NCBI RefSeq assembly: GCF_044324785.1
Contig: NZ_CP172127.1
Strand: one strand, 5' to 3'
DNA length: 64,000 bases
Source: Escherichia coli
GTDB lineage: Bacteria; Pseudomonadota; Gammaproteobacteria; Enterobacterales; Enterobacteriaceae
Made by a program: the position numbers and the translations under genes. The first letter of the stretch is position 1; each line of letters begins with the position of its first letter. The notes beneath the pieces were generated by a model. The model saw only the letters and a list, made by a program, of their open reading frames with translations. It searched no databases and was not told the DNA's origin. Shown here in pieces: positions 14,471 through 24,328 of the stretch.

Positions 14471-15074
14471 TTCCGGATTTCGTCCGGTACTTTTACTTTT
14501 TCTCAGCAGACTTTCATAAAAAATGCTTTATGGATCTGCGTCTTAACATATTTTCTGACTTTCCGCATAAGCTTCTTATGACTGTGCGCACGGCATAAGG
14601 CCATTTGAAATTTGGCCGCTTGCGTGTGTACGTGGAGTTTGAAGCAGTGCATGCGTCACTTTTGTCGGCGTTCACGCTGACAAAGTGACGCATGAACGTC
14701 GACTCAACGAACCCGCATAAACAGGCTCTTCACGGGATGTTTTTTAACATTTGAAGAAGTGACCTGACGTGATCGTTTTTTTTCAACTTCATTCTGTTTC
14801 GTAGTGACGTCTCTCCGGTAAAACTTCCGGAAAAACGTCAGTCAACAGAATATCATTGTTTTTTAAGGAGTTTAATGTAGTGAGATGCCGAATCGGCGAT
14901 ATATCTGACAGGCAGATATGTCGGGGGCGACCTTCAGAGGTACAGTTAATTCTGCGGCCGGTTAAACTAACCGGCTTGACACCCCGCAAAACCTGAACAC
15001 TTTGCGTTACCCTGACGCACAGGCACTCACTCACCGAAGGAACGTAACGAAGAACCGTGTCGTCAGGTGAAATG

Positions 15075-15123
15075 CAGATGAATTCTTCTGTTGTGTTCAC
15101 GGCACAACAGAAGAATTCATCTG
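15075..15123. promoter_or_regulatory. perfect 21-bp inverted repeat with 7-bp spacer, 52 bp upstream of recombinase start
   Basis: CAGATGAATTCTTCTGTTGTG - TTCACGG - CACAACAGAAGAATTCATCTG read directly. Confidence 0.5.
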
Positions 15124-15175
15124 TGTTGTGTGCTGCTGTTTTGTTTAGGTCATAGGTCATAAGGAGAATGTACAG

Positions 15176-16081
15176 ATGTCCAGACGTGAGAAATTGCTTA
15201 AAAAGGATCTGGTTGCTCATGTCCGAAAAGAAAAGGGGAGTTTTAAAAAGTTAAGTGACTATACAAGGATTATGCATCGATTCGCTGAAACGCTTGCTCG
15301 TCTGAATGTACAGATTAGTTCTGCTGCACAGTTAAAAGTTCGTCACATTGAATTATATATGAACAGCAGGACGGATGTATCAAAACGAACGAGAGAAAAT
15401 GAAATGTCAGCAATACGCGCGGTTTTACGTCAGGTTGGTAAGAATAAACTTGCCGATCCCAGCCATCCACGGCTGAGTAATAAAGCATTAGGTATTTCAG
15501 GTGAGAGTCGTAAAGGTACGAAAAGTCTGATTACAGACGATCGTTTTCGTGAAATTCTTCAGCGCATTGAACAAAAAGATAAAGGACTCGCTGCAACGGT
15601 TAAATTGTCGCGTTATCTTGGTCTGAGAAATGAGGAGGCCATTCAGTCCGCCAAATCGCTCAAAACATGGAAACAGGCATTAGAACGGGGAGATGAAAAA
15701 TTACGTGTTATTTTTGGTACGAAAGGCGGTCGTGAGAGAATGACCACGATTGTTGACAGAAATAATGTTATTGAGGCTGTTAATTATGCTATTAAATATG
15801 CCGGTGAGCATGACGGGCGATTAATCGACAGAGGTAATCTTAAGTCTGCAATGAATTATTATCTTAACTCATTGCGTCGTTATGGTGAAATGAAAGGCGG
15901 TGATGAGACACCACATAGTTTTCGTTACAGTTATGCCGCAAGTGCAATGAAATACCATATTATGAATGGTTACAGTTATCATGAAGCGCTTGCATTAACA
16001 TCTATGGATCTTGGTCACGGTGACGGCAGAGGACGTTATATCGAGCAGGTATATTGCCAGTTGTTAGGACATGAAGAATAG
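15176..16081 (+). CDS. tyrosine recombinase / phage-integrase-family protein
   Basis: 301 aa; SD AAGGAG; catalytic-type motifs R (LGLRNEE), HxxR (PHSFRYSYA), H...Y (LGHGDGRGRYIEQVY). Confidence 0.65.
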   Translation: MSRREKLLKKDLVAHVRKEKGSFKKLSDYTRIMHRFAETLARLNVQISSAAQLKVRHIELYMNSRTDVSKRTRENEMSAIRAVLRQVGKNKLADPSHPRLSNKALGISGESRKGTKSLITDDRFREILQRIEQKDKGLAATVKLSRYLGLRNEEAIQSAKSLKTWKQALERGDEKLRVIFGTKGGRERMTTIVDRNNVIEAVNYAIKYAGEHDGRLIDRGNLKSAMNYYLNSLRRYGEMKGGDETPHSFRYSYAASAMKYHIMNGYSYHEALALTSMDLGHGDGRGRYIEQVYCQLLGHEE

Positions 16082-16121
16082 CTGTTATTATATTGTAGCC
16101 ATTTTCTTAAAAGGGACCGTT

Positions 16122-16415
16122 ATGAGTGATTATATTTATATGACTATTACTTCTGTTAAAAGTATCACTGACAACTCTCCTTTCTGGTCTTATGATTTAG
16201 GTTATTATCTTTATTCAGGAAAACTTGTGTCTTTTTATTGTGAGGGCATGTCCAACGAATGGGATATGTGTTCTGCTATCGCGGATCATTTTGACGTTGT
16301 CGGAGATTTTTCTTTTGATGTTATTCGTAAGAAAAAAAGAACGCTGATACGTGGGAACTGCGTTTTTCTTTTTGAACAACCCTTTCCGGGAGCGTATAAA
16401 ATACCGCTTTACTGA
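16122..16415 (+). CDS. hypothetical protein co-transcribed with recombinase
   Basis: 97 aa from ATG with SD AAAGGGA; AT-rich. Confidence 0.4.
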   Translation: MSDYIYMTITSVKSITDNSPFWSYDLGYYLYSGKLVSFYCEGMSNEWDMCSAIADHFDVVGDFSFDVIRKKKRTLIRGNCVFLFEQPFPGAYKIPLY

Positions 16416-16462
16416 ATTTTTTTGTTGTTCTTCCACGTAGTTTGTGCTTACAATTTAAACGC

Positions 16463-16773
16463 TAACTTGTCGCTTCGGCGACCACCAATGTTCCATGTGG
16501 CCTGTGAGGAACGCCTTCGGGTGGCCCATGTCGCTCCGGCGACCACCAATGTTCCATGTGGCCTGTGAGGAACGCCTTCGGGTGGCCCACGTCGCTCCGG
16601 CGACCACCAATGCTTCATCTGACCTGTGAGGAGCGCCTTCGGGTGGTCAGTTTTACACCTCCTGAGCCTGAAAGGAGCTGTGCGTACTGAAGGGATATGT
16701 TTCCGGAAGTACGGGCAAATCTGCACACCTTTGAGAGCAGATGTCACTGCGGTTTTCCGTGATGATGAAGGCT
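16463..16773. repeat. composite repeat copy 2 (same orientation as copy 1)
   Basis: Same three-unit tandem structure and tail as 14161-14470. Confidence 0.9.
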
Positions 16774-16901
16774 TTTTTATCACTGTATGACCTGAGTTAT
16801 CTCTGGTCCTTAAGCACATCGTGTTATCGCATTGATGTGTTCACCTGACGGATTTTCCAGTCCGTCAGGGCGGAACGTCCGTCTTTTATCCGGAGGTTCC
16901 A

Positions 16902-17303
16902 ATGTTTATTCCACTTCTGTTTCGCGCAGAGATGCGCCTGACACCTTTCTTTCAGCGACTCAGACAACGTCTGTGTTATCCGGTGAGTCGTGTTCATACA
17001 CAACATCCCTGGTCTTCTCCACAGTTGCGGCACCTTTACTGCACGCCGTGGTTTGTTAACGCCACCGGCAATCTTGCACTCCGTGCCTGCATTGTTTCCA
17101 TTGACGGTTCTTTGCGACACTGCTTTGAGTTCCGTGAAGGCTCTCACAGCCGTGAATACCGTTTCTGGTTTGAGGCGCTTCCTTTGTCGGTACTGCGTTT
17201 TAACACTTTTACCGGTCGAATATCCGATCGCCGTACACTCTCTGCTGCCTCCCGTATGGCCGCGCAGCTTACTTCCTTTCGCTATCGCTTCGGTTTGCGC
17301 TGA
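16902..17303 (+). CDS. hypothetical protein (leading-region-like array)
   Basis: 133 aa, SD GGAGG upstream. Confidence 0.4.
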   Translation: MFIPLLFRAEMRLTPFFQRLRQRLCYPVSRVHTQHPWSSPQLRHLYCTPWFVNATGNLALRACIVSIDGSLRHCFEFREGSHSREYRFWFEALPLSVLRFNTFTGRISDRRTLSAASRMAAQLTSFRYRFGLR

Positions 17304-17455
17304 AGCTGTTTGAGGTCGTTATGACAGTCATTTTCTCTACGAGCAGCGTTGTCTGATCGCGCCATTCAGAACGCGATGACAAAGCTGATTTTTCCTTAAC
17401 CCGTCCGGGACCGCTTCCGTTCGGGGAACGGTCTCTCTGTTTCTGGAGATTGTTT

Positions 17456-17842
17456 ATGGGACTCGATATTTTTTTCCTTGGGCGTGATCGTGTTTGTGTT
17501 ACCGACGCAGTGGTATCGGTACCGGAAACGCGGGAAGTGGGGTACTTTCGCAAGGTTAACCCACTGATTGCCTGGTTTGAGAAGCATTGTGGACCGCTTG
17601 AAAATGCCGTGGAGCGTCCGGTTTCCAGAACGGAACTGGAGGCACTACTGAGCGATCTTGAATGCCTTACGCCGGAGAACTGCCGGGAATTCTTCCCCAC
17701 AACAGAAGGATTCTTTTTTGGCTCTCAGGAGTATGACCAGTATTACTGGAAGGATGTTGAGGACGTGAAGTCGTGGGTCAGAAGCACGCTTGATTCGTTT
17801 GATTTTGAACGAAAAATACTGTTGCTCTGGGCATGGTGGTAA
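17456..17842 (+). CDS. hypothetical protein (leading-region-like array)
   Basis: about 128 aa, SD GGAGA upstream. Confidence 0.4.
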   Translation: MGLDIFFLGRDRVCVTDAVVSVPETREVGYFRKVNPLIAWFEKHCGPLENAVERPVSRTELEALLSDLECLTPENCREFFPTTEGFFFGSQEYDQYYWKDVEDVKSWVRSTLDSFDFERKILLLWAWW

Positions 17843-17928
17843 CTATTTCTCAGTCCTTGTTTTTAACCATGTGATTATTCGCAGAAGCCCGACTTCTCTG
17901 GCCTGCTTTTATTCCGGAGAATGAGATT

Positions 17929-18177
17929 ATGCAAATAAGTGCAGAAACTCGCGCTGTTTTACGTCACTACAGACAGATCATTAACGCCAGACGGCGTGAA
18001 GATGGCATGAAAGCTCTCAGCACGCCGCAAATCGTTGATGAGATCTGTGAGTTTATGCTCAGCCAGCCAGCAGTGTATCTGGGGGGGGCAGTTCATCATG
18101 CAGAAGGCCAGAACAAGATAGCTGTCTTTGTTCATGGCTTTTCAACAGACCGTTATGCTTTCGCCACCACATGGTAA
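17929..18177 (+). CDS. hypothetical small protein
   Basis: 82 aa with SD GGAGAA. Confidence 0.35.
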   Translation: MQISAETRAVLRHYRQIINARRREDGMKALSTPQIVDEICEFMLSQPAVYLGGAVHHAEGQNKIAVFVHGFSTDRYAFATTW

Positions 18178-18261
18178 GGCGGGTCTGATTTTACTGTTAA
18201 CCGTACGGTTCACTCTCATACCGTACGGTGGGAGTGAACCCTTTTCATTAAGGACACTCTC

Positions 18262-18771
18262 ATGAAAACGAAAACTTCTGCACCTGCTGTATATGTTGGT
18301 ACCTGGGCTAAATACAACAATGGCAGCATAGAAGGATGCTGGTTTAATGATTTAACCGTTTTTGAAACTGAAAGCGATTTTTTATCTGCGGCCCGTAAGT
18401 TTCATCAGGATGAAAAAGATCCTGAATTTATGTACCAGGATTATGAAAACTTTCCTTCGGGAATGGCTTCAGAATATGGTTTCAACTGGGCTTATGTTGA
18501 AGGTTATCGTCTTGCCCGTGAAGAAGGCTGTGAAGATGCATGGTATGCATGGGTTTCTAATACCGGTGATACCTGTTTCGAACAGTTCAGGGAGGCGTGG
18601 CTTGGTGGTCCTTATGACAGTGAACTCGAGTTCGCCGCGCAGTACGTGGATGAATGCGGTTTTCTGTCAGAGGTACCTGATACTGTTGCACGCTATTTTG
18701 ATTATGAGGCTTTTGCGCGCGATTTGTTCATGGAACTGGATTTTGTCGACGGACACGTTTTCCATCGGTAA
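18262..18771 (+). CDS. ardA: antirestriction protein ArdA (DNA-mimic inhibitor of type I restriction)
   Basis: 169 aa, very acidic; N-terminal AVYVGTWAKYNNGSIEGCWF and C-terminal YFDYEAFARDL motifs match ArdA family as recalled (e.g. Tn916 Orf18, ColIb ArdA). Confidence 0.8.
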   Translation: MKTKTSAPAVYVGTWAKYNNGSIEGCWFNDLTVFETESDFLSAARKFHQDEKDPEFMYQDYENFPSGMASEYGFNWAYVEGYRLAREEGCEDAWYAWVSNTGDTCFEQFREAWLGGPYDSELEFAAQYVDECGFLSEVPDTVARYFDYEAFARDLFMELDFVDGHVFHR

Positions 18772-18967
18772 CTCACAGCCATGAGGGCGCATATAAGCCG
18801 TGTACTGGCGGATGTGATTTCAGCATACATTCTGCTGGTTTTTTTACCGTTGTTGACAATTTTAATCATCGCGGATGAACAACCTGAACTCTGTTGTTCA
18901 CCGCCCGGAGGCATCGTTCCTTCGGACGGTGTGCTCTTTCATCAGAAAGAATCAGACAGGGGGTTTT

Positions 18968-19327
18968 ATGTATTCGCGTTTTATTACTGGTTACTGGCAT
19001 CTTCAGACGCAGTCCGCTTTGCTGGCACATCTCTGTCAGCTTGAAGGTGAACTGACGATACTTCGCGCCTGGCAACGTCTCGGAATTACCCCGGTGCCGG
19101 AGGATGAAGATGAGCCTTCACCACTTTACTCAATTTTGTGGGATGTTGGTGAGGCTCTGGGCTGGTTGCTGTATGACCTGGAGATGGAAAATGTTCCTGC
19201 ACCGGGAACGATTTTCCACGAGGTATTCGACAGGGTTATATCTCTGGGGTATGAGACTGAGCCCGGTATCTGGGCTGAAAGTATCAGTACCGGAAAGCGC
19301 TACGCTGCAATGCCTGACGAATTTTAA
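18968..19327 (+). CDS. hypothetical protein
   Basis: about 119 aa from ATG with SD AGGGGG; followed by hairpin terminator 19343-19385. Confidence 0.4.
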   Translation: MYSRFITGYWHLQTQSALLAHLCQLEGELTILRAWQRLGITPVPEDEDEPSPLYSILWDVGEALGWLLYDLEMENVPAPGTIFHEVFDRVISLGYETEPGIWAESISTGKRYAAMPDEF

Positions 19328-19394
19328 TGTTTTCCACATTCCCACAGGGACTCATCCCTGTGGGACGGGTCCCGGCTTTTTCAGGAGAAATTTC

Positions 19395-19733
19395 ATGAGA
19401 CCCGATTTGAATACTTTACCCGGAGATTCCGGCTGCAGCGTCTGGTTCTATGACGGAATGTCTCAACCGCGTCTGCTGGCGGGCAGTATTGCCGGGTTAC
19501 TGACGGATGTTACGATCACATCGAATTACCGTGGTGACGTCACATCTGAAATTCATGACGTGGTGCAGGAGTGGCTTGCGACCGGCAGGGGTAACCTGGC
19601 GGATTTAAAGGAAGAACTCTGGTACTACAACCTCTACATAAATCCGTCGGCAGACGAACTTATGAATGCCAACAGGCGGTATGGCCTCGGACATACCACC
19701 AGGCTGAAAGGCTTTATCAATAACGCGGCGTGA
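19395..19733 (+). CDS. hypothetical protein
   Basis: 112 aa with SD AGGAGA. Confidence 0.4.
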   Translation: MRPDLNTLPGDSGCSVWFYDGMSQPRLLAGSIAGLLTDVTITSNYRGDVTSEIHDVVQEWLATGRGNLADLKEELWYYNLYINPSADELMNANRRYGLGHTTRLKGFINNAA

Positions 19734-19808
19734 CACACCGCCATCCCGTGAGGGCTCAGCTCCTCACGGGGCTGTTCCCTCGGTGATTTTCATACAGAGA
19801 GGAGCAGA

Positions 19809-20246
19809 ATGATGAACGTTAAGTCTGTGACTGAGGTTGACGACGCTGTGGTTGCCCGTGTCAGTGAAGTTCTGGAATTCGCATTTCCGGGGCAGAAATT
19901 TGAAGTGCTGAAGGTATGCGATTCCGGCGTTTACAACATGATTAATGTGTACTGGCTGGACGGCCCGACACAGGCTGAAGTGCGGTTTATCACCCGTGCG
20001 TTTGAAGGCAAAAACGGGCTGAGGTTTGTGCACGAATCCCGCGAATTCAGTAATGAATTTGTGCAGGAGTGCATTGACCGGCTTCGCCAGAAGTACGGGC
20101 ATCGCAACGTTCCGCCAGAGGTGACCGTGGAGCGTTACTGGAAAAACGATCTGTGGAAGATTAAAACAGATCGTTTCCCGGGCACTATTGAGGTTGCCAT
20201 CAACGAAATGGGGATGGAAACCAGTAAATACCGGAAGGTTGTATAA
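19809..20246 (+). CDS. hypothetical protein
   Basis: 145 aa with SD GAGAGGAG. Confidence 0.45.
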   Translation: MMNVKSVTEVDDAVVARVSEVLEFAFPGQKFEVLKVCDSGVYNMINVYWLDGPTQAEVRFITRAFEGKNGLRFVHESREFSNEFVQECIDRLRQKYGHRNVPPEVTVERYWKNDLWKIKTDRFPGTIEVAINEMGMETSKYRKVV

Positions 20247-20332
20247 CCGGCTGGACTTTTGACGATGGCGGAATGTGACAATTCCGCTTTTCCCGTGAGG
20301 GCATTGTTCCTCACGGGACAATGCCCTCTTCA

Positions 20333-21331
20333 TTTACCAGAGGAGCATTGATTATGGCTGAATGGTGCAGAAATCGTTTTGAAATCACCGGTAAGTCAGT
20401 CTGTCTTGACGTACTGATTCAGTGGATTGAAGGGAATGATGCCCCCCGGTACCGTCATGCGATCCAGCAGAGCATACTGCTGTTTCTTGCAGGCTGTGCG
20501 GGGATACTGAAACCGGTAAGAACGGTGTCATATCCGCCTTATCCCGGGCTGGTCAGTCACGGTGCCGGCTCAACAACTGTAGCCAGTCAGGCGTTTGAAC
20601 AATGGCTGGGATTACTGACCAGGGATGCCTTCCTTGATCACGAGACGGTGAAGACAATAGATCGTCTTTATCATCAGACAGGGACAGGCGCTATCCGGTG
20701 GAGTAATCTGCCTGATACGGCGAAGGAGATAATCGGTGGTGTGCTTGCACAACAATATGCTGACTGGTTTGGCGTGGCGGATGTGTATGAACGCCCTGAT
20801 AACGCCTTTCTCTGGGAGTCGTTGTTAACATTTGCGGAGTATTCGCAACCCTGTGATATGCTGCAGGTGATGCCAACACGACTGGCCACGGAGCTGAACG
20901 GAAGTGGTGGTTTGCTGAAAGGCACCGGAACGACCCGCAGTTTTTACTGCCGCCAGTTTGGTATGGAGTACCCACTGGGGCAGAATGTCCGGTGGAAACG
21001 AACCGGGCTGAGTACGTTGATACTGGAGTTTGATACCATCTGGTGTCCGCCTTCAGGTGTACTGGTGGGGGAGATTTCGGCAGTGTTTGACTGTGAGGTC
21101 CGTCACTGGTACAGCGAGCCGAAGAACGGAATCAGAGGCTATGACTGTTATGATGGTGGTGAACATACGGACAGCAATATGGAAGCCGAATGGCCACACT
21201 CTGACGATGAGGGGGAGGTCGCGGAGCATGAGCAGCCACAACTCTGTCTGATCAGGGACACGCAGCCAGGTGAACGCGTCATGGCATTAGCATCAGTCGA
21301 GTCCCCGGGGCCAGTAGTAAAAATAGTGTAA
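20333..21331 (+). CDS. hypothetical protein
   Basis: 332 aa with SD AGAGGAG; acidic C-terminus. Confidence 0.45.
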   Translation, partial: FTRGALIMAEWCRNRFEITGKSVCLDVLIQWIEGNDAPRYRHAIQQSILLFLAGCAGILKPVRTVSYPPYPGLVSHGAGSTTVASQAFEQWLGLLTRDAFLDHETVKTIDRLYHQTGTGAIRWSNLPDTAKEIIGGVLAQQYADWFGVADVYERPDNAFLWESLLTFAEYSQPCDMLQVMPTRLATELNGSGGLLKGTGTTRSFYCRQFGMEYPLGQNVRWKRTGLSTLILEFDTIWCPPSGVLVGEISAVFDCEVRHWYSEPKNGIRGYDCYDGGEHTDSNMEAEWPHSDDEGEVAEHEQPQLCLIRDTQPGERVMALASVESPGPVVKIV

Positions 21332-21340
21332 TGAAACAAT

Positions 21341-21366
21341 GCGCCACATTTTGTGGCGCTTTTTTA
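21341..21366. terminator. hairpin terminator between convergent genes
   Basis: GCGCCAC-ATTTT-GTGGCGC then T-run. Confidence 0.5.
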
Positions 21367-21412
21367 ATAAATCAGTGATGGCAGAGTTGTTATTGTAAAT
21401 AACTCTCCGTGT

Positions 21413-24328
21413 TTACTGAGTCAGTTTTTTTATCAGGTCGTGAATTTTATCACCTGAAAACTGGGTCATGAAAGTTATCTTTATGGATTTACTGATTTGT
21501 TCGAAGAGTTTCTGTGCATGTTTTATTTTATCGCGTTCTTCATGTCTGAGTTCACGTTTGCCATCAACATTTTTGGTTTCAATAATAAGGTTCAGATAAT
21601 CACCCTTTGACGTGTTTACAACATAAGCGAAGTCAGGGGAGTAAGTGTATCCTCCCGCTACAGGAATTTTTATTGAATTTTTGGGGATCTTTGTGAAGAC
21701 AATGACTGACCTGACCTCACCCTCTGTCATATTGAGTTTTTCAAGTTCTGAATCATAAAATACTTCTTCAAAAAGATAAGAGTCCAGTGGAGGGCTTGTA
21801 TTATCCTGTAAAACGCCAAGATCACTTGACAATACATCAGCAAGATAACCGCCGTCTGCATTGGTGAATTTCGTGGGATGGACAGTTCCTGATATTACAT
21901 TATACCCAAGGCTGAATTTACTGAACGAGTTATTAAGCAAATACTTGCTGAAACCAGATTTAATTTTTCTGATTGTCTGAATGTTAAGGTATTCAGTTAT
22001 ATTTATGATGTCTTTTATATCACAAAAAACCTTATGCATGGTGTCATGTTTGACAAAAATAGTCTGTGATAATTTATCAAGGAATTCACGATAGCTCATT
22101 GTGTTTATTTTGTGAAAATTATCCTCATCAACACTGAGAATGCTTTTCGACATTGCCGTATCATTATGGATATAAATTCTTTCAATACGAGTATGAGCAC
22201 CGGATTTGGTAAATCTGTCTGCTTCTTCCAGCATAAACGCTCTGAAAAGGGATAAAAACTCACGTTCACTTTTTATTTTATACTCAATCACGACCTTTTG
22301 ATTGATCAAGTCCCATAGTTCTTTCAGCTCACTGAACTTACCAACACGCATTTTAGTGCGTCTTTTTCCATCAGAGGCTTTTTTTATTTTGCCTGGTTTC
22401 ACTCCTGCAGGAAATGCTGCCGGATATCTGGCTTTTAAGCGGCTATAGGCATCTGAATCTTTGAAGTTATCATTATCATCAATGATCTCATCACCAAAAA
22501 TTTCATTCAAGAGTGTTCTGGAGGAAAGCTCCGGATATTGAGACAGGATTTTATCCTTAAGCTCCTGAGTAAACTTACCTGGAACAGTCTCTTTGAAAGA
22601 ACTATCGTTGATCTCTTTGACAAGAGAATCGACAAAATCTTTTTCTGTAAAATCAACATAATAGTTGAGGGTAAAATTGCGGTCTTTCACACGACACATG
22701 TATTCATTCACCGGAAGACGTAAACCACGCCCTACTTCCTGAAGTTTAGATGTGGTGCTACCGCTCGAACGGAGCTTACAAATCTGAAAGACATTTGGGT
22801 TATCCCATCCCTCACGCAACGTCCATTTAGAGAAAATGAAACGGCGAGGATTTTCTAAAGACAATAGAAGCTCTTTATCATGAAGGATTTCGTTGATTTC
22901 CTGCTCAATTTTATCATCTTTATCACTATTATCTTTTGAAAAATAACCACCATGAACAGAAGATATATCCTTAACAGTTTTTTCAAGGTAGTTTCTGTAA
23001 AACTCATCTTTTTCTGTTTTTAACAGTTCATTTGCTTCTGCCAAAACGTATTCTTCGAACTTAGTTTTCAGGCTTCCTGCAATATCATTACCATCACGAT
23101 AGCCTTCAATGTCATCAATGAAGAAAAGAGTAAGAGGTTTTATGCGTGGCCTTTGTGTCAGATACTCTTTTTCTAACTTAAAGTGTTCTTTGACAGCTTT
23201 ACGTATCATGTTATCAGCAAGTGTCTGATCGTAAGAATAGGGGTTTATCGAACTACCAATTTTTAGCTCAATACCATTACTCAACACTGCTGTATTCTTA
23301 TTTAAAGCATCAAGAGTTAAATCATGGATCGCACTATGCGTCTTAGATAGTGATTCACCTTTGGCTAACTTAAAAATTTTTTTATTATTATTTTCGTTCA
23401 GTTCAAATGTAGCTTCTTTTCCGTCAGATTTGACCAACTTGAGGTTGGCATTACCATCACCAACTATATCCTCAATGTATGCATCAATACCTTTAACAAG
23501 ATCTTCATTGAAGGCATCTACGGCTGTAAGACGATAAACTAAGTTCTTATAGCCTTCACTAAAGGTTGCACCATAGCGGATGATATATTGGGCATTAAAT
23601 TTTTGAATATGTTCCCATGTCTTTTTACCAGTAGGAAATTTATGAGGCTCATCAATGATAATGAATGGTTTTATCGCACTAAGTGCAGAAAATGGGGTAT
23701 CAAACTGATTATTAAGCAAGCCAACATCATAAGTGTCAGTTAAAGACTTAGAGTTAATCATCCCTGAATTGATCACAAGAATGTGTATATATTTCTTATT
23801 GAAATTACTTGCTTCAACAAAATCATGGATAGCTTGAGGTATATACGATTTTGTATTTTTACCCGAACGTTTCTGACTTTCAACAACGTAAGTCTTTAGT
23901 TCACGCTCGTAATCATCTCGAAAGTGTTCTTTTATAGCATCGCTTTTTAAAAAGTTAACGGTTCCGGCTTTGATCGATAGGGTAGGAACAATGATGATAA
24001 ACTTGTTAATACCAAATGATTTGTTCAGGTCAAAAATTGTTTTGGTGTAAGTATAAGTTTTACCTGTACCTGTCTCCATAGAAACATCAATTACGTTGCT
24101 TTTAGCATCGTAATTATCTTTTGAGTGCTCAATACCATTGAACTCCTGAACATTTTTTATGTTGTTGTAGTATTGTTGTTCAGATAGATTCAGTTCTGGA
24201 TTAGCTAACAGGCGAATTGCAACATGATCCGTCTGATGAGGTATGGCGGATACAAAGACATTCATTACCGAATCAACGCCAGCCTTTTGATGAGGTAAAT
24301 TTTTTTCGAATGTGAACCCTTTAGACAT
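21413..24328 (-). CDS. res: Type III restriction endonuclease, Res subunit
   Basis: 971 aa; helicase motifs METGTGKTYT and IIIDEPH; C-terminal PD-(D/E)xK-like region; size typical of EcoP15I-like Res; AT-rich. Confidence 0.85.
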   Translation of the reverse strand: MSKGFTFEKNLPHQKAGVDSVMNVFVSAIPHQTDHVAIRLLANPELNLSEQQYYNNIKNVQEFNGIEHSKDNYDAKSNVIDVSMETGTGKTYTYTKTIFDLNKSFGINKFIIIVPTLSIKAGTVNFLKSDAIKEHFRDDYERELKTYVVESQKRSGKNTKSYIPQAIHDFVEASNFNKKYIHILVINSGMINSKSLTDTYDVGLLNNQFDTPFSALSAIKPFIIIDEPHKFPTGKKTWEHIQKFNAQYIIRYGATFSEGYKNLVYRLTAVDAFNEDLVKGIDAYIEDIVGDGNANLKLVKSDGKEATFELNENNNKKIFKLAKGESLSKTHSAIHDLTLDALNKNTAVLSNGIELKIGSSINPYSYDQTLADNMIRKAVKEHFKLEKEYLTQRPRIKPLTLFFIDDIEGYRDGNDIAGSLKTKFEEYVLAEANELLKTEKDEFYRNYLEKTVKDISSVHGGYFSKDNSDKDDKIEQEINEILHDKELLLSLENPRRFIFSKWTLREGWDNPNVFQICKLRSSGSTTSKLQEVGRGLRLPVNEYMCRVKDRNFTLNYYVDFTEKDFVDSLVKEINDSSFKETVPGKFTQELKDKILSQYPELSSRTLLNEIFGDEIIDDNDNFKDSDAYSRLKARYPAAFPAGVKPGKIKKASDGKRRTKMRVGKFSELKELWDLINQKVVIEYKIKSEREFLSLFRAFMLEEADRFTKSGAHTRIERIYIHNDTAMSKSILSVDEDNFHKINTMSYREFLDKLSQTIFVKHDTMHKVFCDIKDIINITEYLNIQTIRKIKSGFSKYLLNNSFSKFSLGYNVISGTVHPTKFTNADGGYLADVLSSDLGVLQDNTSPPLDSYLFEEVFYDSELEKLNMTEGEVRSVIVFTKIPKNSIKIPVAGGYTYSPDFAYVVNTSKGDYLNLIIETKNVDGKRELRHEERDKIKHAQKLFEQISKSIKITFMTQFSGDKIHDLIKKLTQ

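Follow-up and report, generated by a model that had tools for sequence, protein, structure and literature searches.

The window analysed here, a stretch of 64,000 nucleotides, is a chromosomal ICE of E. coli that carries TIGR03756/7 genes, genes for type IVb pili, and ardA (identified by a Pfam search). Part of it is an array of same-strand genes headed by a tyrosine-recombinase-like gene, in which ardA is followed further downstream by an LPD29 gene (ATG 19809) and a DUF1281 gene; in related elements, matching arrays adjoin UvrD and TraI(MOBH) genes. The DUF1281 gene had been read as 332 aa long, but it more likely begins at ATG 20354 (325 aa) than at the 332/336-aa start, ATG 20354 being the RefSeq start, with an SD, GAGGAG, 8 nt upstream.

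The initial annotation drew attention to a 9-bp stem repeated upstream of the LPD29 and DUF1281 genes, and both direct reading and repeat finding confirm that the two stems are real and perfect. This hairpin, H1, has the arms CCCGTGAGG/CCTCACGGG, which form a perfect 9-bp stem with an 8-nt loop at 19745-19753/19762-19770 (copy 1, hairpin 19744-19771, -19.6 kcal/mol) and at 20292-20300/20309-20317 (copy 2, hairpin 20291-20318), both on the + strand; in copy 2, U-A and G.U pairs lengthen the stem to 11 bp. The two sites together make up a 38-nt direct repeat (19744-19781 and 20291-20328, 79% identical). Only 0.02 occurrences of the full hairpin pattern, with up to three mismatches, would be expected in the window, so the two perfect copies exclude chance. 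The 9-mer arm itself is found 7 times in the window against 0.41 expected, and the three surplus single arms lie in coding sequence or in an SD on the other strand, without a comparable hairpin.

An alternative stem overlapping H1 had been described at the second site. It exists, although its placement at 20296-20327 was one base off: the core is GAGGGCATTGT/ACAATGCCCTC at 20297-20307/20318-20328, and as RNA this helix, H2, comprises 14 bp (20297-20328, + strand), with GAGGGCATTGTTCC at 20297-20310 pairing with GGGACAATGCCCTC at 20315-20328, one U.G pair and the loop UCAC (TCAC, 20311-20314). Its fold energy is -26 kcal/mol (z = -6.7), the tract 3' of it is a degenerate U tract, TTCATTTACC, and our scan listed it as terminator-like. 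H1 and H2 share GAGG and the 3'-arm CC...GGG, so that only one of them can form at once, in agreement with the mutual exclusion proposed earlier. The alternative stem is not confined to the second copy, however. Copy 1 has an equivalent H2 (19750-19781, + strand) of 5 + 7 bp around a 2x2 internal loop, in which both partners differ from those of copy 2 at three positions: GAGGG at 19750-19754 pairs with CCCTC at 19777-19781, and the inner part, CAGCTCC with GGGGCTG, lies at 19757-19763/19768-19774 with the loop TCAC at 19764-19767. This helix appears in a fold of 19740-19790, and the tract GGTGATTTTCAT follows it.

Both copies also contain a third helix, H3, which reaches the SD region of the next gene and had been overlooked. 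In copy 1 (19772-19807, + strand), CTGTTCCCTC at 19772-19781 pairs with GAG-A-GGAGCAG at 19797-19807 (-14.0 kcal/mol), and the LPD29 SD lies within this pairing. In copy 2 (20319-20350, + strand), CAATGCCCTCT at 20319-20329 pairs with AGAGG at 20339-20343 and GCATTG at 20345-20350, covering the SD (GAGGAG, 20340-20345) and spacer of the DUF1281 gene (-12.7 kcal/mol). Each copy can thus be written as four segments: segment 1 is CCCGUGAGG plus a variable tail, segment 2 is CCUCACGGG, segment 3 is a stretch complementary to that tail together with CCCUC, and segment 4 comprises the next gene's SD and spacer, with H1, H2 and H3 being the pairings 1:2, 1:3 and 3:4. Between the stop codon of the LPD29 gene (20244-20246) and copy 2 lies a separate 8-bp hairpin, H0 (20267-20288, + strand; GCGGAATG... 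/ ...AATTCCGC), followed by TTTT; orthologues have an equivalent of different sequence, but modules that come after a CbtA gene lack it.

The layout had been taken to be special to the second copy and the DUF1281 gene, but it is a general module that stands before nearly every gene of the array. This four-segment module of about 65 bases precedes at least six consecutive same-strand genes, including ardA and the LPD29 and DUF1281 genes. Before the gene starting at 16902, the paralogous module (16844-16901) has H1 at 16844-16854/16859-16869, H3 at 16872-16881/16891-16900 and a TTTTAT tract between segments 3 and 4. The module of ardA (18200-18261; ATG 18262) has H1 at 18200-18209/18220-18229, H2 formed by GGTTCACTCTCA/TGGGAGTGAACC and followed by CTTTTCAT, and H3 at 18230-18236/18255-18261. 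Before the gene starting at 19395, the module (19340-19394) has H1 (TCCCACAGGGA/TCCCTGTGGGA) at 19340-19350/19355-19365, H2 (GGGAC/GTCCC) followed by GGCTTTTTC, and a weak H3; its orthologue in locus L139 has a perfect 7-bp H2. Two other modules are probable paralogues. The one at 17400-17455, belonging to an ORF with the start TTG 17450, was recognised from its fold and left unscored by the automatic parser; it has an H1-like hairpin at 17400-17425 and, directly after it, a hairpin covering GGAG and the start codon. The one at 18901-18967, before the gene starting at 18968, has an H1 hairpin at 18901-18929 followed by GCTCTTTCAT, and the H1 plus H3 pattern was not recovered in its MFE structure. 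All five lie on the + strand, and their palindromes differ in sequence from one module to another. The end of the operon is marked by a plain bidirectional terminator (21341-21359) without H1 or H3. The hit density of a strict three-helix scanner was 10.6 per 10 kb in the arrays, compared with 0.64 per 10 kb in unrelated natural DNA (329 kb), and in the window it gave 10 hits on the + strand and none on the - strand; six extra + strand hits (4247, 5184, 6876, 7353, 9689 and 43707) look like false positives in GC-rich coding sequence.

The same architecture is found in ICE and plasmid arrays of Salmonella (SGI-4), Klebsiella, Citrobacter, Pantoea and Erwinia. Among complete E. coli genomes the element occurs in 154 of 5426, at a median of one place per genome and always in an ICE context, before DUF1281 or LPD29 genes. 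A pattern scan returned at least 120 stretches in GTDB genomes and 8 in viral contigs, mostly unrelated plain hairpins; about 14 of the matches listed are true modules, all in Enterobacterales and before DUF1281 genes, and the others are plain hairpins without H2, one unrelated Balneolaceae MAG having many hairpins with the identical 9-bp stem. Distant DUF1281 homologues of IncF/IncI plasmids (about 32% identity, 4935 plasmids) were considered as further carriers and set aside, as they have a different, long GC-rich upstream structure and no module. Our literature searches found no description of the module, and a search of Rfam 15 at E <= 1, covering the modules, window positions 15000-22000 and 41 kb of seven homologous loci, gave no match for it.

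The three helices are real, conserved with compensatory change, partner-specific and located on the sense (mRNA) strand. In H2, 95.7% of the aligned cells are paired, both partners have changed in five pairs (13 cells), and the covariation score was matched by none of 500 shuffles. In H1, 98.8% of cells are paired, and pairing survives one-sided changes (G.U, G-C). Within the CCCGTGAGG family H1 showed no compensatory change, an invariance that could alternatively reflect sequence-specific recognition; CCCGT, which lies outside H2, is invariant in all 15 distinct sequences, and the H1 loop varies among relatives. The hairpin at the H1 position in paralogous modules differs in sequence, with seven of nine pairs changed on both sides, in what is a partly circular test. 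Partner specificity was assessed on 17 non-redundant module types with the segments defined purely by position: cognate duplexes averaged -14.3 kcal/mol for 1:3 (non-cognate, -7.0) and -14.3 kcal/mol for 3:4 (non-cognate, -7.7), and in neither test did any of 20000 permutations reach the cognate mean. The SD spacer covaries with the variable part of segment 3, as CAUUG/CAAUG in copy 2, CAG/CUG in copy 1 and AACACG/CGUGUU in modules before methylase genes. The sense strand folds better than its complement in 30 of 39 modules (Wilcoxon p ~1e-5) and holds far more G.U pairs (61/565 against 8/511). Some of the tests lean towards H1 and H3, because both are partly defined by folding.

As the transcript grows, the equilibrium fold of both window copies passes from H1 to H2 and then to H1 plus H3. 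The MFE structure switches from H1 to H2 at 20328 in copy 2 and 19781 in copy 1, and to H1 plus H3 at 20349 and 19805, respectively; among 39 unique modules, 26 show both of these flips, with the H2 state examined by truncation and transcript-length scans and H1 assigned by MFE parsing. H1 is complete before the 3' arm of H2 is transcribed. Its predicted barrier as a trap is about 23 kcal/mol (findpath, nested-structure model), which is an upper bound that ignores pseudoknotted routes; with so deep a trap, H2 would almost never form unaided and a trigger would be needed. Our search of the modules for a trigger or sensor found none. A ribosome at the upstream stop codon was rejected as a universal trigger: the distance from stop codon to H1 has a median of 33 nt (range 5 to at least 135 nt), no more than 9 of 39 modules have 12 nt or less, and copy 2, with 44 nt, is too far away. 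For copy 1, where the distance is 10 nt, such a ribosome is a possible trigger. An in-frame ORF does run through copy 2 (ATG 20269 or GTG 20295 to TGA 20349), stopping 2 nt short of the DUF1281 ATG, but we rejected it as a leader peptide, as it lacks an SD and is conserved neither in copy 1 nor in orthologues (L002); no conserved leader ORF was found in the modules.

H2 has the features expected of an intrinsic-terminator hairpin, which is GC-rich and has a stem of at least about 5-7 bp and a loop of 3-8 nt. Directly after it, 19 of 23 relatives have at least six T in 9 nt, usually as an uninterrupted T5-T8 (T7 in SGI-4 and pEB102), and owing to this T-rich run H2 in most relatives has the form of a canonical intrinsic terminator. 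The window U tracts (TTCATTTA / TTCATTTAC and GGTGATTTT) are degenerate and interrupted, with 5 T of 9, and therefore termination is doubtful here, being possibly weak or absent; for the window copies, masking or unmasking of the SD would be the more consistent output. The median gap between the end of H3 and the start codon is 1 nt, and H3 uses the 3' arm of H2 as its own 5' arm. The cost of freeing positions -16 to +3 is not significantly higher for the array genes of the window than for 33 other genes of the ICE (medians 8.4 and 6.6 kcal/mol, p = 0.26), so SD masking is not exceptional in magnitude, and we moderated our claim of SD occlusion accordingly.

From these results we can present a proposal that, in our judgement, has about an even chance of being correct. 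Each copy would be a cis-acting intercistronic three-helix RNA module in a polycistronic establishment/anti-defence operon, with H1 as anti-terminator, H2 as terminator and SD unmasker, and H3 as SD mask, and it would probably gate expression gene by gene. H1 (1:2) would finish first and sequester the 5' arm of H2, acting as a kinetic trap and, by locking up that arm, as a built-in anti-terminator. H2 (1:3), a long GC-rich hairpin with a U-rich tract, would be the intrinsic terminator in most relatives. After read-through, the freed 3' arm of H2 could pair with the next SD and spacer up to the start codon, forming H3, which would damp translation of the next gene. Anything that blocks pairing of the 5' part of segment 1 (CCCGU) would flip the module to H2; a ribosome completing the upstream ORF, 10 nt away, is a candidate blocker for copy 1, and a separate factor is another candidate. 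A flip during transcription would then mean termination, and a flip on the finished transcript an exposed SD.

The same helices might instead be ordinary operon punctuation without any switching, H2 serving as a partial terminator or 3'-end stabiliser for the upstream gene and H1 as an independent mRNA-stabilising or processing hairpin, which would cap the 5' end of the message lying downstream once RNase E had cut the A/U-rich linker. The overlaps would be by-products, with the H1/H2 overlap and the SD pairing arising from the GC-rich GGG/CCC and from GAGG/CCUC. The linkers upstream of H1 are indeed single-stranded and A/U-rich, terminator-like hairpins are enriched throughout the array region (30 against 8.8 expected), any GAGG SD is necessarily complementary to CCUC, exposing the SD costs no more than for other genes of the ICE, and no sensor was found in the modules. 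However, GGG/CCC and the SD are common to all modules, and yet segments pair far better with their own partners in both 1:3 and 3:4; by-products would also not account for the covariation between the SD spacer and the variable stretch of segment 3, for two equilibrium flips with transcript length in 26 of 39 modules, or for an operon-end terminator that lacks H1 and H3. We consider punctuation alone rather unlikely.

A signal acting at the DNA level seems to us quite improbable, whether as a palindromic operator for an ICE repressor (zygotic induction, like that of Reg576 or the ArdK/CUP regulons), an ssDNA hairpin for promotion or priming (Frpo/ssi) or a recombination site for cassette exchange. 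Two establishment genes are preceded by identical, perfect inverted repeats of 9 bp, which would suit such a signal; operators repeated before establishment genes (PMC6294495) and leading-region ssDNA promoters (PMC11541004) are known. The LPD29 gene, which lies between the two copies and is missing from single-copy relatives, and the tyrosine-recombinase-like gene at the head of the array would suit cassette exchange. Against this, it is the pairing rather than the sequence that is kept, and each G.U pair would be an A.C mismatch on the complement, the presumed transferred strand; only at the RNA level do a U tract and a part for the SD make sense. The other array modules carry different palindromes, which argues against a common operator, and the modules have no -35/-10 pair in or beside them. 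The element measures about 40-65 nt, whereas known ssDNA promoters have hundreds, attC core sites are absent from the five module regions examined, and the DUF1281 genes of IncF/IncI plasmids stand behind long GC-rich structures without the module. Least credible of all, we think, is a dispersed repeat of the REP/BIME or MITE kind that serves no particular gene, which the initial annotation had itself named as the alternative to its reading. The element is a short, GC-rich intergenic palindrome, present twice, and its 9-bp stem recurs many times in the Balneolaceae MAG; but copy number, strand and context all differ from those of REP-type repeats, which number tens to hundreds per chromosome, stand in both orientations and have unrelated neighbours. 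A search for the motif elsewhere, as had been advised, bore out the two copies and revealed no REP-like dispersal: there are only two copies in 64 kb, the 154 of 5426 E. coli genomes that have the element carry it at a median of one place and in every case ahead of DUF1281 or LPD29 genes of ICEs, its orientation is invariably that of the coding strand, its spacing to the start codon is fixed, and the GTDB and viral matches elsewhere are plain hairpins lacking H2.

The three-helix switch that we favour shares features with several known systems. The layout had initially been called switch-like or attenuator-like, and this stands insofar as H2 covaries, 19 of 23 relatives have the U tract and the fold flips; a classical attenuator is not established, as there is no leader peptide, aptamer or other sensor. 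As in the trp, his and pyrBI attenuators and in rph-pyrE, a terminator competes with an earlier hairpin through common bases, and H1 and H2 provide just such an alternative hairpin sharing terminator bases; the rph-pyrE attenuator is, like the module, intercistronic rather than at the operon head. Unlike these attenuators, the module has neither a leader peptide nor a fixed distance to the upstream stop codon, the 3' arm of its competitor lies inside the apical loop of the terminator (1:2 against 1:3, where 2:3 against 3:4 is usual), it is repeated before every gene, and in the window its U tract is degenerate. The resting state 1:2 plus 3:4, in which the second hairpin holds the SD and an alternative pairing frees it, recalls translational attenuation in ermC and cat, and H3 does place the SD in a helix that alternative pairing can release. 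In contrast to ermC/cat, the alternative pairing is 1:3 and not 2:3, there is no stalling leader peptide, and the helix that frees the SD is also terminator-like. Riboswitch, T-box, RAT and ANTAR aptamers or protein-binding folds gave no covariance match to the modules in Rfam 15.

In hok/sok mRNAs, with their metastable 5' hairpins (fbi/tac), and in the fold-back of IS10, folding is sequential and the RBS is occluded by an upstream complement in long or read-through transcripts of a mobile element. The module would resemble these in that the first local hairpin dictates later pairing; it differs in that no promoter inside it could supply a transcript with the RBS free, and we identified no toxin ORF, antisense RNA or 3' processing signal in the modules. 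CUP/ArdK of IncN plasmids is also a repeated cis-regulatory element, and ssDNA promoters of the Frpo/ssi type are long hairpins of the transferred strand with -35 and -10 hexamers in duplex form, the Frpo hairpin being roughly 330 nt long. The helices of the modules measure 9-14 bp, and no promoter-like hexamer pair was found in them. Leading-region regulons reiterate cis elements before establishment genes, as with Frpo (PMC11541004) and Reg576 (PMC6294495). Whereas Frpo, Reg576 and CUP/ArdK act as DNA, the module shows RNA-type covariation, sense-strand G.U pairs, a U tract and SD involvement. Neither attC core site (RYYYAAC ... GTTRRRY) was found in five module regions of the window.

A further structured element stands at the head of the array, where two copies of the STAXI RNA motif lie at 16468-16589 and 16590-16773 (68.6 and 66.3 bits). 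STAXI (Rfam RF01728) is an uncharacterised structured element of enterobacterial ICEs, found near integrase, ssb and antirestriction genes (Weinberg et al. 2010, PMC2864571). Its internal loops have GUGAGGA, resembling segment 1 of the module; unlike the module, it is a tandem pseudoknotted hairpin with UUCG loops, unlinked to an SD or U tract. The modules gave no match to the STAXI covariance model at E <= 1, and RNAduplex between STAXI and the modules returned only long-loop duplexes that could not be interpreted. The module adds an uncatalogued structured-RNA class beside the still unexplained STAXI motif.

The genes expressed first in a new host (anti-restriction genes, methylases, ArdC, DUF1281-type genes) decide the success of transfer, and the timing of establishment genes has so far been explained by ssDNA promoters (Frpo) or by dilution of a repressor. 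A conserved three-state module that punctuates the operon in Salmonella SGI-4 and in elements of avian and human pathogenic E. coli offers, in its four short segments, a handle for compensatory-mutation tests of post-initiation control. More speculatively, and we are doubtful of it, a ligand-free RNA device before every cistron of the establishment operon might read the mode of expression through its three cotranscriptional states, such that the array bursts in a new recipient and is later shut at each junction. Candidate inputs would be ribosome-coupled as opposed to uncoupled transcription, a fresh transferred single strand as opposed to a duplex template, or a later ICE-encoded factor that blocks H1. 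If true, this would place beside ssDNA promoters and repressor-based zygotic induction a counterpart that works after initiation. The module also suggests a route by which elements exchange gene cassettes such as LPD29, namely recombination inside the sequence that they share. Plasmid BLAST matches all begin at 20291, the first base of the hairpin.

The perfect 9-bp stem that the initial annotation had noticed before two consecutive genes (CCCGTGAGG/CCTCACGGG, 8-nt loops) lies at 19745-19753/19762-19770 (copy 1, before the LPD29 gene, ATG 19809) and at 20292-20300/20309-20317 (copy 2, before the DUF1281 gene, ATG 20354); only 0.02 occurrences of the whole pattern, with up to three mismatches, would be expected in the window. 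Each stem forms the core of one copy of a 38-nt direct repeat (19744-19781 and 20291-20328, 79% identical). The overlapping alternative stem proposed for copy 2 is also present (20297-20307/20318-20328); in RNA it reaches 14 bp, including a single U.G pair, closes on a UCAC loop and folds at -26 kcal/mol (z = -6.7). Copy 1 has an alternative stem as well (GAGGG/CCCTC plus CAGCTCC/GGGGCTG, with a 2x2 internal loop), which differs from that of copy 2 on both sides at three positions. Folds of the entire intergenic region give, for both copies, the first hairpin and, directly after it, a second one, in which the Shine-Dalgarno sequence (SD) and spacer of the next gene are paired to the alternative stem's 3' arm. 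We describe this module as four segments, 5' to 3', the fourth being the SD and spacer: segments 1 and 2 form H1, 1 and 3 the terminator-like H2, and 3 and 4 form H3 over the SD.

Comparative evidence argues strongly that the three helices are selected and mutually exclusive. Among 15 distinct sequences of the CCCGTGAGG family, H2 pairs in 95.7% of cells and has both sides changed in five pairs (13 cells), a score reached by none of 500 shuffles and far above all slid controls. H1 is 98.8% paired and essentially invariant in the same sequences, with one-sided changes that preserve pairing and no compensatory ones; the 5' CCCGT is invariant though it lies outside H2. The invariance of H1 could mean sequence-specific recognition, instead of or besides pairing. 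Paralogous module types have different sequences at the H1 position that still pair as a hairpin, both sides having changed in 7/9 pairs, a comparison that is partly circular since the rows were picked as hairpins. The most independent test used 17 non-redundant module types with segments set by position only. Segment 1 paired with the 16 nt after its own H1 at -14.3 kcal/mol (non-cognate, -7.0), and those 16 nt paired with the 20 nt directly upstream of the start codon at -14.3 kcal/mol (non-cognate, -7.7); in both the 1:3 and the 3:4 test the cognate mean was reached in 0 of 20,000 permutations, and a second analysis of this kind agreed.

A fuzzy search and hairpin scan found the same architecture, in different sequences, in nearly every intergenic region of the arrays, for example CCCTGAGGGGAACACTTCCTCAGGGGcgtgttccccTTTTTTTatGGAGaacacgtATG (before methylase genes) and CCCTGACGGGGATTTACTCCCGTCCGGGggataaatccccccTTTTTTattcgcGGAGGatttatcgATG, in both of which the variable tail of segment 1, segment 3 and the post-SD spacer match one another. 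The window has modules before the genes at 16902, 18262 (ardA), 19395, 19809 and 20354, and probably also before those at 17450 and 18968. H1 followed directly by an SD-holding H3 is the minimum free energy fold of 39 of 53 intergenic regions from ten loci. A strict three-helix scanner gave 10.6 matches per 10 kb in the arrays, and natural DNA of unrelated origin (329 kb) yielded 0.64 per 10 kb; in the window it gave ten on the + strand, six of which are probably false positives from GC-rich coding sequence, and none on the - strand (randomised sequence, 0-3). In 22 module types the H1 5' arms follow a loose consensus, (C)CC-[T/G]-[G/T]-[A/C]-N-GG-G (e.g. CCCTGACGGG), which suggests that the modules descend from one another or a common ancestor, or that they share a feature for recognition. 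Just before the CC that opens H1, many modules carry a short A/U-rich linker, often TTTAAC or TTAAC (window 18195-18200; homologous loci L139 60-70 and L134 375-381), which does not coincide with the annotated stop codon in every case and could be a processing site.

Relatives with the module before DUF1281 genes are the circular form of Salmonella SGI-4, other E. coli ICEs and plasmids of Klebsiella, Citrobacter, Pantoea, Duffyella and Erwinia; in them it mostly stands 3' of an ArdC-like gene, and the arrays run on into N6-methylase, UvrD and TraI (MOBH) genes. All plasmid BLAST matches to the DUF1281 region start exactly at 20291, the first hairpin base. Relatives without the LPD29 gene have one copy of the CCCGTGAGG module, before DUF1281 (e.g. 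L133, 3005-3030, and L138), and two copies enclose LPD29 wherever it occurs (window 19744-20328; L132 3003-3860), with outer flanks that match the single-copy arrangement (L132 versus L133). The recurrence of the stem is therefore best explained, we infer, by an LPD29 segment inserted or exchanged by recombination within the shared module; in L132 the two CCCGTGAGG copies enclose a small ORF besides the LPD29 gene. Distant DUF1281 homologues (4935 plasmids; IncF, IncI, compared loci L126-L129) stand at the start of a leading-region block, and about 160 nt upstream of the gene L126-L129 carry a long and very stable structure, rich in GC, that spans 166 nt and folds at -63 to -68 kcal/mol; it is possibly an element of the ssDNA promoter type and has no relation to the ICE module. 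Many contigs of one unrelated genome, a Balneolaceae MAG (T1Sed10_211R1, L060-L069), carry numerous hairpins with the identical 9-bp stem and loops of 10 nt; they look like a genuine dispersed repeat of that organism, unrelated to the module.

The folding of the growing transcript suggests the probable mode of action of the module. In both window copies the equilibrium fold is H1 until segment 3 is complete, turns to H2 from 20328 (copy 2) or 19781 (copy 1), and becomes H1 plus H3 from 20349 or 19805, once segment 4 is out; this succession occurs in 26 of 39 unique modules. The barrier between H1 and H2 is about 23 kcal/mol, an upper bound from a nested model. Since H1 forms first and faces this barrier, by default it would persist and block the terminator H2, the polymerase would read through, and free segment 3 would then close on the SD as H3, which stops a median of 1 nt short of the start codon. 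H2 is nevertheless clearly under selection and usually followed by a U tract, so that some condition must keep CCCGU unpaired: during transcription this would lead to termination, and afterwards to exposure of the SD. At least six T in the 9 nt directly after H2, mostly as an unbroken T5-T8, occur in 19/23 family members, giving H2 the layout of a textbook intrinsic terminator there; in the window copies and the orthologues closest to them the tract is interrupted (TTCATTTAC and GGTGATTTT), and the window's own tracts are weak. In copy 1, H1 lies only 10 nt from the upstream stop codon, so a ribosome that terminates there could be what keeps CCCGU unpaired. We rejected this trigger for copy 2, where the stop codon is 44 nt from H1 with an extra hairpin, H0 (20267-20288), between them; overall, the stop-to-H1 distance is at most 12 nt in only 9/39 modules. 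Freeing the ribosome site costs a median of 8.4 kcal/mol for the window array genes and 6.6 for 33 other ICE genes, a difference short of significance (p = 0.26), so H3 is predicted to be a moderate rather than an extreme mask, partly as H2 refunds the cost.

The module would combine the action of a terminator/anti-terminator attenuator with that of an erm-type SD switch, and its sequential folding is like that of hok mRNA. It falls outside the families of attenuators, erm-type switches and hok, having a 1:2/1:3/3:4 topology and neither a leader peptide nor an aptamer; no leader ORF or obvious trans partner was found for the modules either. The recurrent stem noticed initially is confirmed, and its reading as a switch- or attenuator-like layout is supported in part; the regulatory logic and the trigger are what we infer. 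REP repeats, STAXI, Frpo and attC were each rejected as its identity. Promoter hexamers, attC cores and Rfam families did not fit the modules, Rfam 15 holds no model for them, and our literature searches found no description; we file the module as a variant, not described in the literature searched, of cis-regulatory RNA. That it acts in the transcript, and not in the complementary strand (presumably the transferred one, by analogy with leading regions; PMC11541004), is pointed to by the U tract, the involvement of the SD, the better folding of the sense strand in 30/39 modules (p ~1e-5) and the excess of G.U pairs (61/565 in the sense strand versus 8/511 in its complement).

E. coli chromosomes match the window with identities of up to 100%. 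It is an integrative conjugative element that carries TraG, type IVb pilus genes and the ICE genes TIGR03756/03757. Its array is headed by an integrase-like gene (15176-16081, +) and a short ORF, followed by two tandem STAXI RNA motifs (Rfam RF01728; 16468-16589 and 16590-16773, +; 68.6 and 66.3 bits against a gathering score of 40.5) and eight small + strand genes, including ardA, the LPD29 gene and the DUF1281 gene. A plain bidirectional terminator (21341-21359, GCGCCACAAAATGTGGCGC between A and T runs), which has no H1 or H3 partner sequences, separates the end of the DUF1281 gene from convergent type III restriction-modification genes (21413-24328 and beyond). The STAXI motifs, at the array head 3' of the integrase-like gene, carry GTGAGGA in their internal loops (16504, 16565, 16626), a sequence similar to segment 1 and complementary to TCCTCAC in segment 2; duplexes calculated between STAXI and the modules had long loops and were uninformative. 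The best sigma-70-like match of the region (CTGACA-17-TATGAT, 10/12; 16168-16196, +) lies 5' of the STAXI repeats and, as a consensus match only, is a candidate promoter for the array. Just 5' of the integrase-like gene there is a perfect 20-bp inverted repeat, AGATGAATTCTTCTGTTGTG ... CACAACAGAAGAATTCATCT (15076-15122, +). Finally, ardA is intact in the window (18262-18771, 169 aa, Pfam ArdA); in the otherwise identical strain GF60 (locus L001, 16617-19772) it is split by an IS21-family element (ISSso4-like istAB), so that window and L001 coordinates differ upstream of the insertion.
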